Source: Naegleria gruberi (Eukaryota). Taken from it: a stretch of DNA of 64,000 bases. Location: assembly GCA_000004985.1 (NCBI GenBank), contig GG738879.1. One strand, written 5' to 3'. The position numbers were made by a program, and so were the translations under genes. Below the pieces are notes generated by a model that had not been told where the DNA came from, ran no database searches, and was given only the letters and a program-made list of their open reading frames with translations. This document shows positions 34,125 to 39,570 of this stretch, piece after piece (position 1 is the stretch's first letter; the number at the start of each line of letters is the position of its first letter).

Positions 34125-35230
34125 TTAAACTGATTGAGTAATACCAAAAGAATCAAAATTATCTGGACATAATTTCGAATAATGTTCAACACCCTTCTCA
34201 AAATCCTCATCACTAATTAACAATTCATCCAACACTTGTTCCAACCCTGTGAAATTATGTCTCAGTCCAATGAACACAATTTCCTGTCGTCGGTCGCCAA
34301 CTCTTTCAACAAAATGTTGTTTAACATTCTCAAAAACTGTCTTTCCATATAACTGGATGGATTCTTCTTCACCTAAAGTATCAAAGAATTTCAGATATCG
34401 TTCAGTGAAAAGAAAATTGAACAATTTTTCAGTATGGAAAGGCTTTCGTCTTCTGTAAACAAAACTGTTGAATCCATATTCGAAAGTTTCTGGGGTTTGC
34501 ATTCCTCTGAGTTCTTTTAACCACCAGGATTGAATGCTGCCTTTTCAAAATCAAATAGTCCAGTATTCAATACTTTGGAAAGATCTAGCTGAGAATTCAC
34601 TGTTTCATACATTGGCGTCTGTTTTTATTATGGATTTAGTTTAGCCATTAAACTCTTAATCTTTTGAACTTCTTCAATTGAAACTAAATCAATCTTATTA
34701 ATGATAATTACATTTGCAAACTCAAATTGATCGATCAAGAGAGGAGCTATATTTCTTCCATCATATTGCGACAATCTATCAACAAACTTTTCCTTCATTG
34801 TCAAGACAGAATTCAAATCATGCATTAAATTTGCAGCATCAACCATAGTAACACAAGAATCTAATCTTGCAAAATCTGAAAGTGTAAACGAATCATCTTC
34901 ATCCAACTCTCCATCTTCATCTTCCACCTGGAATTCAACATATTCGAAGGTGAATGTCTCTGCAACCTGAAGTGGCTCTCCAATACCTGTTGATTAAATA
35001 TCACAATAGTCAAATACTTCAGTTTGAGATAATTCAAAGAGTTCAACCAGCAAATCTTCTCTCAATGTACAACAGATGCACCTGCAATCAAGAATTATTA
35101 CACATGGAATCAAATTACTTCTACCACTTCCTAAGAAACCACTCAACAGAGTAACTGGTATCTTCTTTCTTTTATATTTATCAAAAATGGATTTGCACAG
35201 GCTAGGAGCTTGTGCTGTTTGTTCTCTCCT
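34125..35230 (-). pseudogene. decayed CobW/COG0523 (Zng1/CBWD-like) metallochaperone GTPase gene
   Basis: Clear homology in one reading direction: IPVTLLSGFLGSG (G1 region), CICCT (CxCC motif), FDYCDI, LLIDQFEFANVIIINKIDLV (NKxD region), ETVNSQLDLSKVLN, and the CobW_C domain GWLKELRGMQTPETFEYGFNSFVYRRRKPF. But the P-loop reads GSGRS (Lys replaced by Arg). About 45 residues between the P-loop and CxCC are missing. In-frame TAA codons occur at three places (DI*STG and NP**KQ). There is a 1-nt frameshift at ...FNPGG*/WLKEL. The only nearby ATG (35228-35230) is out of frame. Confidence 0.5.
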
Positions 35231-35461: not shown

Positions 35462-35532
35462 GAAGGGAGATAGTTCAGTGGTAGAACATGGGATTGTGGT
35501 TCCTAAGATCAGGGTTCGATTCCCTGTCTTCC
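35462..35532 (+). tRNA. tRNA-His (anticodon GTG)
   Basis: AGGGAGATAGTTCAGTGGTAGAACATGGGATTGTGGTTCCTAAGATCAGGGTTCGATTCCCTGTCTTCCTA. Acceptor AGGGAGA/TCTTCCT, anticodon loop tTGTGgt, T-arm CAGGGTTCGATTCCCTG, discriminator A. The G-1 is not encoded, as is usual in eukaryotes. Confidence 0.85.
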
Positions 35533-35589
35533 TACACCTTTTTAAATATTAATAATACAAGTTTATTGTAAGGCAGAGTCCAATTTAAA

Positions 35590-36606
35590 TTACATCATGG
35601 TACAAGCTCCCTTCTTTCTCTTTTTCACCTTATTCATAATTTGGACAGCACAATCCATAAAGCTCTCCTCAACATTTGTTCTAGTTTTTGCAGAAGTTTC
35701 AAAGAAGGTAATATTTCCAAACTTTTTGGCAACTTCACGTCCTTCATCTGCTGAAACAACTCGTTCATTCTTCAAATCTGCCTTATTACCAACCAAGACA
35801 ACTGCTGTCTCACTTGCTAAATTACGATATTCATCAGCATTGTCAAATTCTTTAGCTTGAGCAATTTGTTCAAGGAATGAATAAACTTCATCAAATGAAT
35901 TCCTATTAGTGACACTATAAACAATGACGAAACCTTCTCCTTGTCTAATATATTGATCACGAAGTGTACTATTTCAATGTGACATTTCCACACAAATTAA
36001 AATGATCGTTAGTTTCCAACATGATATATAGTGACACATACCAAAATTCTTCCTGTCCTATTTACGTGCCAACAACAATCACACAAAATATTTGGAAATT
36101 ATTTGACGTTCTCTATGAACAACAATTTCCACACAACAACTTACCAGCAGTATCCAATATATCCAAAATTACTGGTTTTTTTTCAATATGTGTATCTTTT
36201 CGGTATCTTCATCATCAAATATATTAAATTTGTAATATAAATATATATTAACAATTATCATATGTGTTGATTATGACAATAAATATTATATAATAAATAA
36301 TTTAGTGTGATGATGTAAATTTGATGATGTAAAATTTGTACAAATCCACAAATAATAATAATAACAAGAATTGTTATTCATGATGAATTTCTAATAAATT
36401 AATAACATACGAATCTTCCAAGGTCGGATCATATTGTTCTACAAATACATTTTGAATAAGTTGGACGATGAGAGCTGATTTTCCTACACCTCCTAATTTC
36501 CATGTTAAACATTCCAATAATTTAGACGAAACATACCTGAACCGAAAACAACAATTTTCAATTCTTCTGGTTGCTCCTTTGCGTTCTTGTCCTTCTTTGG
36601 TGGCAT
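35590..36606 (-). CDS. Ras-subfamily small GTPase with a CAAX box (CTMM); 5 exons, join(36537..36606,36411..36492,36145..36206,36042..36057,35590..35968), including a 16-nt micro-exon
   Basis: Exon 1 [23 protein letters not shown]|G. Exon 2 [27 protein letters not shown]. Exon 3 [21 protein letters not shown]. Exon 4 (gacaggaagaattttg) supplies (G)QEEF(C). Exon 5 [19 protein letters not shown]...[11 protein letters not shown]...[12 protein letters not shown]...[11 protein letters not shown]. Donors are GTATGT, GTATGT, GTAAGT, GTATGT. Introns are 44, 204, 81 and 67 nt. Phases 1-2-1-2 were checked against ORFs 36374..36823 and 35590..35796. Confidence 0.8.
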
Positions 36607-37641: not shown

Positions 37642-39570
37642 GTGACGACGAAAGCAACAGAGAATCATCACATCTTGATTCCCAGTCCATCATCCATACT
37701 ATTGCTCAATAATAATAGTCCTCATTCTCATCATTTGCATCATCCACAACAACACCAACAGCAGCATCAACATCCAAATCATCACAATCACCGATCCATT
37801 ACCATGAGTATGCTTCAACATCAACAATTGGTCGAGTGTTTTGCTCAAGATCAGATCGATCTGGAGAGCGTTTCATCGTCCTATTGTTGTTCACCTCCGT
37901 CTGCTTCCTCCTCCATGCTACCTGCTACAGCTGCACACCATCACGATGAAACAACTTCTTCTTCTTGTGGCTCGGCTAGTCTTGATGTTGGTAGAAATAA
38001 TTATCTGCACCATCATCATCATCAGAAAGGTTCCTTCGACTCGTTCGATTCCAATCATACGAATTCATCATCGGTATCGGCTGTTGTGGATGAGCGATTA
38101 TTATTATCATCATCGAGGAATGATTCCTTCTCTTCCTTTCATTTGATGGAGGAACAGCCTATTTTCATTCATTCACCATCCAATTCTATTTATTCACCCT
38201 CAGAGGAACATGTTCTCTCATCAAGCCTTGATAATAATAATAATGCGATAACACTTAATAACAATTCTAACAATTCTAATAATGATAAAGTAAAAGAGTT
38301 CAGCAAGTTATCATTTACTAATAACAGTACTAATAATCAACATTACAATAATCCACCAACTATTCGATCATCTCCAAGAGATATCAAATCAATTGCCACA
38401 AGTAAAGTTGCCTACTCTCTCAATGATACCAAATCTACTCAATCCAAAGGTCAGATCGAAGAAGGAATATCAGAATTGGAACAATTATTTGCCTCTAGAA
38501 GAGCTTTCAATTCACTTTCGAAAAAGTATTCAACAGATAACTTGCTTAAAGAACAAAAGAAGAGAAACAAACATTCCACTGATAAGGATCATTTACTATT
38601 GCTACAACAGCAACATCAACCTTCTTTGACAAGTGCCTCTTCATTTACTGCCACTACTTCTACATCATTCCTGGAACCATCCTCCAATGCCATTCGTTCA
38701 ACCAAGTCAACTTCATGTCTTTCACCATCTTCCCCAATTAGTGATTCATTTGAAGAGATCAAGTCAATAATTCAAGCTTACTATAATTACGAGTCCTTTG
38801 TTGAGAGTGCAGATGGGAGAGAAGAATTAAGATTATATTTGAGGAAGAGACATAATGAAGAGATGTTATTAATGTTGGAAACTAGAATTACCTTTCTGAG
38901 TTTCTATGAGGAAGGTTCTAATTTCTATGTGGGAAGAAGAGCTCTGTTAAAAGTGAAAGAATTTCAAATGATTTATTCTCAATTCATTGATACCAATTCT
39001 CAATTCTGTATTAATATTGATTCAAGTATAAGAAACAAATTTGTAAAGCTCAACCCTCGAGTGAATAAGGTTAATACAGAAGAAGAGGCTGCTCTTCTAG
39101 TGAAGGAAATTGATGAATGTTTGGACACGCTTCATTTTAGTGTATCACTTCAGGTCAAGACTGAAATTTTCTCACAATTCAAAAAAACGGAGGAATTTCA
39201 AACTTTCATTCTTTCAAAAATTATAGAACTCCAAGGAAAGAAAGCTTGGGAAGGACTTGAACGTCAAAATGGTACATCATTACATGACAGTCCATCCAAT
39301 CATGGAGGATTTTTCTCCTTCCTAAAGAAAAACCCTCAAAATTCAGCCATCAAGAAATTTGAAGAGAAATTAATTGAGGAATTTCTGATAGAAAATGAGC
39401 TCGCTGAATATTGTGGACAATTCAGAAAGAAAAAACTCTACACTCTAAGCCAAATCCAAAACTACTCTTGTGATGATTATCTAAAGTTGGGTGTTATCAA
39501 AGTTACTCATCAGACCCGATTAATTCGTCTCGTTGGACAATATTTCAAATCCTATTGTAATAAGAATTAA
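37642..39570 (+). CDS. RGS-domain plus C-terminal SAM-domain protein with a Gln/His/Ser/Asn-rich N-terminal half (5' end uncertain)
   Basis: RGS-like region IKSIIQAYYNYESFVESADGREELRLYLRKRHNEEMLLMLETRITFLSFYE...FQMIYSQFIDTNSQFCINIDSSIRNKF. SAM-like C-terminus EFLIENELAEYCGQFRKKKLYTLSQIQNYSCDDYLKLGVIKVTHQTRLIRLVGQYF. The ORF-track start 37642 is a GTG. The first in-frame ATG is at ~37804 (MSMLQHQQ). A short upstream ATG exon is possible. Confidence 0.55.
   Translation: MTTKATENHHILIPSPSSILLLNNNSPHSHHLHHPQQHQQQHQHPNHHNHRSITMSMLQHQQLVECFAQDQIDLESVSSSYCCSPPSASSSMLPATAAHHHDETTSSSCGSASLDVGRNNYLHHHHHQKGSFDSFDSNHTNSSSVSAVVDERLLLSSSRNDSFSSFHLMEEQPIFIHSPSNSIYSPSEEHVLSSSLDNNNNAITLNNNSNNSNNDKVKEFSKLSFTNNSTNNQHYNNPPTIRSSPRDIKSIATSKVAYSLNDTKSTQSKGQIEEGISELEQLFASRRAFNSLSKKYSTDNLLKEQKKRNKHSTDKDHLLLLQQQHQPSLTSASSFTATTSTSFLEPSSNAIRSTKSTSCLSPSSPISDSFEEIKSIIQAYYNYESFVESADGREELRLYLRKRHNEEMLLMLETRITFLSFYEEGSNFYVGRRALLKVKEFQMIYSQFIDTNSQFCINIDSSIRNKFVKLNPRVNKVNTEEEAALLVKEIDECLDTLHFSVSLQVKTEIFSQFKKTEEFQTFILSKIIELQGKKAWEGLERQNGTSLHDSPSNHGGFFSFLKKNPQNSAIKKFEEKLIEEFLIENELAEYCGQFRKKKLYTLSQIQNYSCDDYLKLGVIKVTHQTRLIRLVGQYFKSYCNKN
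37690..37830 (+). repeat. CAN-type codon repeats (poly-Gln/His) in the RGS-SAM gene
   Basis: catcatttgcatcatccacaacaacaccaacagcagcatcaacatccaaatcatcacaatcac... Confidence 0.5.

Follow-up and report, generated by a model that had tools for sequence, protein, structure and literature searches.

Ras proteins carry glutamine at position 61, where Rap proteins have threonine, and the introns of vertebrate RAS genes lie after codons 37, 97 and 150. Constitutive coding micro-exons have been described in plants and animals. In plants, the introns that flank micro-exons are often spliced late, and the presence of a micro-exon in one lineage and its absence from another usually reflect whether a flanking intron is present or lost (PMC8831610). 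Such small exons are often missed by gene finders (PMC8831610).

The locus analysed here occupies positions 35590 to 36606, on the minus strand, of a 64-kb stretch of DNA that we refer to as the window. We read it as the Naegleria gruberi gene for a Ras-subfamily GTPase of 202 amino acids, with four short introns and a 16-nt exon in switch II on which the reading frame depends, and we put the probability of this reading at about 0.9. The micro-exon very probably exists, and the reference annotation already includes it. It belongs to a well-known kind, the constitutive coding micro-exon, and it is a matter of gene structure rather than a functional module.

Gene structure and protein product

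When the five exons were joined by script, they gave a 609-nt coding sequence for 202 amino acids with no internal stops. The five-exon model originally proposed thus held in its coordinates, its sequences and its minus-strand orientation. All four introns begin with GT and end with AG, with lengths of 44, 204, 87 and 73 nt and donors GTATGT, GTATGT, GTAAGT and GTATGT, respectively (GTAWGT). Exon 1 (36537..36606, minus strand, as for all exons and introns of the gene; 70 nt) starts at the ATG, encodes 23 residues and ends one base into the Gly24 codon, which is equivalent to HRAS G12; intron 1 (36493..36536; 44 nt; GTATGT..TTAG) follows in phase 1. The P-loop GGVGKS and the effector loop YDPTLEDS both come from exon 2 (36411..36492; 82 nt). 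Intron 2 (36207..36410; 204 nt; GTATGT..GAAG; GC 17%) interrupts Ser51 (HRAS S39) in phase 2, and exon 3 (36145..36206; 62 nt) supplies 20 residues and the first part of the Gly72 codon. Intron 3 (36058..36144; 87 nt; GTAAGT..AAATAG) lies in phase 1 in Gly72 (HRAS G60), and intron 4 (35969..36041; 73 nt; GTATGT..AAATAG) lies in phase 2 in Cys77 (HRAS S65). Between these two introns is micro-exon 4 (36042..36057; 16 nt), with the sequence GACAGGAAGAATTTTG. Exon 5 (35590..35968; 379 nt including the TAA) covers the remainder of switch II, the NKAD and ETSAK motifs, and the C-terminal KKRKK and CTMM. A branch-point-like ACTAAC motif is present in intron 4; intron 3 shows neither an obvious polypyrimidine tract nor a strong branch-point motif. 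An independent contig from a metagenome (L005, from ERR1078381) has exactly the same DNA sequence in introns 3 and 4, in the micro-exon and in exon 5, which rules out an assembly artefact at the micro-exon.

The micro-exon is preceded on its 5' side by GTAAATAG and followed on its 3' side by GTATGTGT, with the borders AAATAG| and |GTATGT. It consists of the last two bases of Gly72, the codons for Gln73, Glu74, Glu75 and Phe76, and the first two bases of Cys77. Alignment to HRAS and Rap structures gives a numbering offset of 12, so that the exon corresponds to G60 (part), Q61, E62, E63, Y64 (here Phe) and S65 (part), the start of switch II, and the 202-residue product contains the switch-II peptide DTAGQEEFCTLRDQY. 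The catalytic glutamine is on such a small exon because introns 3 and 4 are only 16 nt apart. The central claim of the original prediction, that the switch-II glutamine (Q73, equivalent to HRAS Q61) is encoded on a 16-nt exon, is supported by the Pfam match, the structure alignment, the annotated protein and three relatives; translation likewise bears out that the exon supplies G-QEEF-C within the DTAGQEE motif. Skipping the exon breaks the frame, as had been claimed, and leaves a truncated product of 121 amino acids. The 11-nt alternative, in which the internal CAG serves as the acceptor, also breaks the frame and leaves 78 amino acids. With the exon included, the peptide is the same as in N. 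fowleri and N. lovaniensis. Micro-exons being coding exons of about 30 nt or less that are spliced into mature mRNA, this 16-nt exon fits the class in its length and in its canonical splice sites on both sides. When the 176-nt interval separating exons 3 and 5 was shuffled 200,000 times, a 16-nt AG..GT exon encoding G-QEE[F/Y]-x never arose, and the analytic chance expectation for such an exon in this interval is about 5.5e-7.

The product matches the Pfam Ras family (PF00071) with E = 2.8e-53; the score is 180 bits, the cutoff being 21.6, and the match covers residues 17-188 and profile positions 1-161 of 162. Its best matches among solved structures are Ras, Rap1b, R-Ras2 and H/K/NRAS (E about 1e-47 to 1e-49; about 50-58% identity). 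The G1-G5 motifs are all present (GSGGVGKS, YDPT47LEDSY, DTAGQ73EE, NKAD and ETSAK) and align with the same motifs in 5wdr and 3x1z. Membership in the Ras/Rap/R-Ras group, as opposed to Rab, Rho, Arf or Ran, is indicated by the top PDB matches (Ras, Rap1b, R-Ras2 and H/K/NRAS), by the effector loop YDPTLEDSY and by glutamine at position 61. On translation, the C-terminus shows the polybasic stretch KKRKK followed by the CAAX box CTMM, a prenylation signal together with a second membrane signal, and the product is predicted to be a farnesylated, membrane-bound GTP/GDP switch. It matches the N. gruberi "ras family small GTPase" (EFC42538.1 / XP_002675282.1 / UniProt D2VL04) at every residue along its entire length (100% identity). 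This agreement is not fully independent, because the XP_002675282.1 model is itself a prediction. The dictyostelid origin that had been assumed is rejected on the strength of this 100% match, since Naegleria gruberi is a heterolobosean (Discoba, Heterolobosea). Nor was the micro-exon easily missed, as had been expected of an exon so small: it is present in the 2010 gene model (XP_002675282.1/EFC42538.1), and the identity of the products means that annotation did not overlook it.

Several features of the product and its surroundings were recorded in addition. An insert of about 10 residues (window about 35730-35780; residues about 117-131) lies in the loop between HRAS helix 3 and strand 5. It is present in 13 of 17 aligned sequences, these being all of the heterolobosean-type relatives, and the Dictyostelium, chytrid and Anaeramoeba Ras proteins of the same 17-sequence alignment lack it. 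Judged from this alignment, the insert marks a distinct heterolobosean Ras clade to which the N. gruberi gene belongs. A tRNA-His(GTG) gene (window 35464-35535, plus strand) lies 54 nt past the Ras stop codon in convergent orientation, an arrangement also found in L005. The divergent upstream neighbour (window 37642-39570, plus strand) is a 642-aa ORF that has a SAM_1 domain; its match to RGS is weak (E 6e-4) and falls short of the Pfam cutoff. In N. fowleri (L001) and N. lovaniensis (L007), too, the Ras orthologue has a neighbour with a faint RGS match, but the two genes are oriented differently relative to each other there. A CobW nucleotide-binding domain and a CobW_C domain are found on separate minus-strand ORFs (34628-34927 and 34125-34502, within window 34125-34927), which probably form one intron-containing CobW/COG0523-like GTPase gene.

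Orthologues and the origin of intron 3

To compare exon structures, annotated proteins were threaded through their own genomic loci, with only GT/GC..AG introns allowed. The orthologues from N. fowleri, N. lovaniensis and Willaertia magna are 80-89% identical to the N. gruberi protein. In N. fowleri (XP_044556449.1; 86% identity), the exons measure 77, 84, 78 and 379 nt and intron 3 is absent, the 78-nt exon being equal to 62 + 16 nt; N. lovaniensis (XP_044544334.1) has the same structure, with exons of 77, 84, 78 and 379 nt and no intron 3. Introns 2 and 4 lie in the same codon and phase in these two species as in N. gruberi and are common to all three, whereas intron 3 is present, of the three, only in N. 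gruberi. An environmental relative on a partial contig (L006; 82% identity) also lacks intron 3 and keeps the positions of introns 2 and 4. The Willaertia magna orthologue, which has Met where N. gruberi has Cys77, is divided into exons of 226, 39 and 344 nt by introns at F76 (phase 1) and at coding nucleotide 265 (phase 1), again with no intron 3.

N. fowleri, N. lovaniensis and L006 all have the same peptide, DTAGQEEFCTLRDQY, and encode it on one unbroken exon (78 nt) because intron 3 is absent. For the same reason, the N. fowleri, N. lovaniensis and Willaertia orthologues have no micro-exon. The comparison with orthologous exon structures that had been proposed as a check therefore gave a divided answer. 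It strongly validates, at the level of sequence, the predicted coding content of the micro-exon, whereas the micro-exon itself is not conserved and occurs only in N. gruberi among the sampled orthologues. A search of JGI metagenome contigs with the exon-5 peptide returned distant relatives only (<=49% identity) and no further Naegleria-like loci.

Two other differences in structure were seen among these genes. Willaertia magna has a 39-nt exon of its own in the switch-II region (L002 3277-3315), and its bounding introns are not shared with Naegleria. Intron 1, compared over window positions 36493-36537, is in phase 1 in N. gruberi, within the Gly codon that follows Ser TCA; N. fowleri (L001 3078-3366) and N. 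lovaniensis (L007 1078-1271) have it 2 nt upstream, in phase 2, in a Ser codon AGT. This offset looks like intron sliding combined with a TCN/AGY serine codon switch.

The distribution of intron 3 extends beyond the orthologues. The Acrasis kona homologue (P0010, on L004; 61% identity) has a 42-nt phase 1 intron that falls within LDTA[G]QEEF, exactly where intron 3 lies in N. gruberi, and this intron is real because reading through it gives an in-frame stop. A rough neighbour-joining tree places the Acrasis gene outside the orthologue clade and outside the Naegleria/Willaertia paralogue clade. No intron at G60 phase 1 was found in the chytrid Ras or in the Dictyostelium purpureum Ras. It seems reasonably probable that intron 3 is ancestral to the heterolobosean Ras clade and was lost three to four times, the micro-exon being what remains where two old introns were retained. 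Intron loss is commoner than gain, and the established view of intron evolution holds that parallel insertion at an identical site is rarer than loss. Retention is favoured on the first of these grounds and also because 30-50% of N. gruberi intron positions are common to other supergroups, which points to old introns (PMC3174169).

On the other hand, intron 3 might have been gained recently in the N. gruberi lineage, splitting a 78-nt exon into 62 and 16 nt at a site where Acrasis gained its intron independently, a possibility that we regard as tentative but worth weighing. Every sampled orthologue lacks the intron (N. fowleri, N. lovaniensis, L006 and Willaertia), as does the Willaertia paralogue, and on the rough tree two gains require fewer events than three to four losses. 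The Acrasis intron is nevertheless a real intron at the identical codon and phase, a coincidence that would call for parallel insertion at one site, generally the rarer event; moreover, the site itself, CTG|GA, is a poor proto-splice site, and the high share of N. gruberi intron positions found in other supergroups speaks for age.

A short repeat bears on the same question. The 12-mer TTGTGTGGAAAT is common to introns 3 and 4, both of which end in AAATAG, and is thus a hint of local duplication. Its two exact copies (window 36125-36136 and 35984-35995, minus strand) are the only ones in the 64-kb window, and the local alignment of introns 3 and 4 gives a shuffle p of about 0.006. The 12-mer could be a trace of a partial duplication, and so of an origin of intron 3 by local duplication, or it could be chance; as evidence of duplication it is weak, being too short for a conclusion.

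Introns are found at four positions within 16 nt across the sampled Ras genes: G60 phase 1, E63 phase 2 (Dictyostelium purpureum Ras and the Willaertia paralogue), F/Y64 phase 1 (the Willaertia orthologue) and S65 phase 2 (Naegleria). The switch-II stretch is thus unusually intron-rich, because other Ras genes have introns at neighbouring but distinct positions. That intron 3 was recently gained at the exact Acrasis codon and phase, as a parallel gain at a switch-II hot spot, is in our judgement unlikely. If a recent gain were true, the locus would provide a documented parallel intron gain at such a hot spot. With its presence in N. gruberi and Acrasis and its absence from N. fowleri, N. lovaniensis and Willaertia, intron 3 offers a small and tractable case of loss versus parallel gain in Heterolobosea, which is the only mildly interesting thread at this locus.

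Splicing of the micro-exon and alternative products

Splicing complexes cannot assemble on both sides of a micro-exon at once when the exon is too short, according to the general view of micro-exon splicing. Each of the flanking introns of N. gruberi (87 and 73 nt) would be recognised alone, by intron definition through its strong consensus 5' splice site (GTAAGT or GTATGT). Introns 3 and 4 are probably removed one after the other, as general knowledge of splicing suggests, because a 16-nt exon leaves no room for one complex at the upstream 3' site and another at the downstream 5' site at the same time. The micro-exon has to be included for the frame to be kept and for a functional GTPase to be made.

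Structure-assisted splicing was also considered. The segment comprising intron 3, the micro-exon and intron 4 folds no better than its shuffles (z = 0.58). This leaves the idea unsupported, and it was rejected. The spliced 38-mer GATACTGCTGGACAGGAAGAATTTTGTACACTTCGTGA, which spans both junctions, had no matches in the JGI metagenome contigs, the only collection scanned, and the protein cluster of the N. gruberi Ras consists of the genome-derived entry alone. An RNA-seq dataset for N. gruberi is available (ENA PRJEB23822; Grau-Bove et al. 2018, PMC6142364).

A real micro-exon whose inclusion is regulated would turn the frameshift to account: skipping, which shifts the frame, would yield the 121-aa product or a target for NMD and so provide on/off control of Ras output, with GATACTGCTG directly joined to TACACTTCG in the skipped mRNA. 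In general, skipped exons and retained introns do occur in N. gruberi transcriptomes (PMC6142364), and micro-exons are spliced less efficiently than longer exons (PMC8831610). We consider this reading improbable, however. Both flanking introns have consensus donors, an indication of constitutive use; close relatives do without intron 3, so that a conserved regulatory role is not expected; the fold described above revealed no structured RNA element; and nothing in the data points to regulated skipping.

The five-exon path had been called the only phase-consistent reconstruction, which was an overstatement. Enumeration of the paths that connect the DTA and RDQY cores through one or two GT-AG introns, each no shorter than 30 nt, gave 15 that were open and in frame, three of them single-intron (four-exon) models. 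The five-exon path is nonetheless the only one that combines consensus donors (GTAAGT and GTATGT) with the peptide of the orthologue. In the other 14, QEEF is deleted or replaced, or extra residues are added after it. The consensus donor and acceptor of intron 3 are used by only 3 of these 14 paths, in which the micro-exon is merely lengthened, and a consensus donor for intron 4 by none.

The three four-exon paths are open and in frame, with a single intron running from a donor at 36140, 36137 or 36134 to the acceptor at 35969, no micro-exon, products that lack Q61-E62-E63 (DTAGNTLRDQY, DTAGKFTLRDQY or DTAGKLFTLRDQY) and an mRNA junction of the kind GCTGGTAA joined to TACACT; but they are very improbable, as their donors are non-consensus (GTTGTT, GTTGTG and GTGTGG) with a perfect GTAAGT 4-10 nt upstream, as they delete the invariant switch-II QEE present in 17 of 17 aligned relatives, and as they leave unused a 16-mer that has perfect splice sites and encodes the exact orthologous residues (chance about 5.5e-7).

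Comparison with known Ras genes and micro-exons

In the literature, we found no paper that links Naegleria with micro-exons, or that describes a switch-II micro-exon in any small GTPase. This silence reflects a lack of attention, not a new principle. On its own the locus is of little weight, being a standard Ras-family switch with a micro-exon already annotated. As a clean protist case in which a catalytic residue lies on a 16-nt exon critical for the frame, it nevertheless makes a useful test for gene finders.

Like canonical Ras proteins (HRAS/KRAS/NRAS, Dictyostelium RasG/RasD, Rap1 and R-Ras2), the N. gruberi protein has all of the G-boxes, Q61 and the effector loop YDPTLEDSY, and its C-terminus combines a polybasic stretch with a CAAX box, as in KRAS4B. 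It differs from canonical Ras in a 14-residue N-terminal extension, in Ser at position 11, and in the insert of about 10 residues between helix 3 and strand 5, which canonical Ras lacks. The intron positions of the gene also differ from those of vertebrate RAS genes.

As an exon, it resembles the constitutive micro-exons of plants (Yu et al. 2022, PMC8831610) and animals: it is likewise about 16 nt or less, it lies in a conserved domain, the frame depends on it, and the introns on either side are ordinary; as in the plant examples (PMC8831610), its presence is set by the loss or retention of a flanking intron. Unlike the plant and animal micro-exons, it is found in a heterolobosean with short, intron-defined introns, is not conserved across its genus, and is already annotated.
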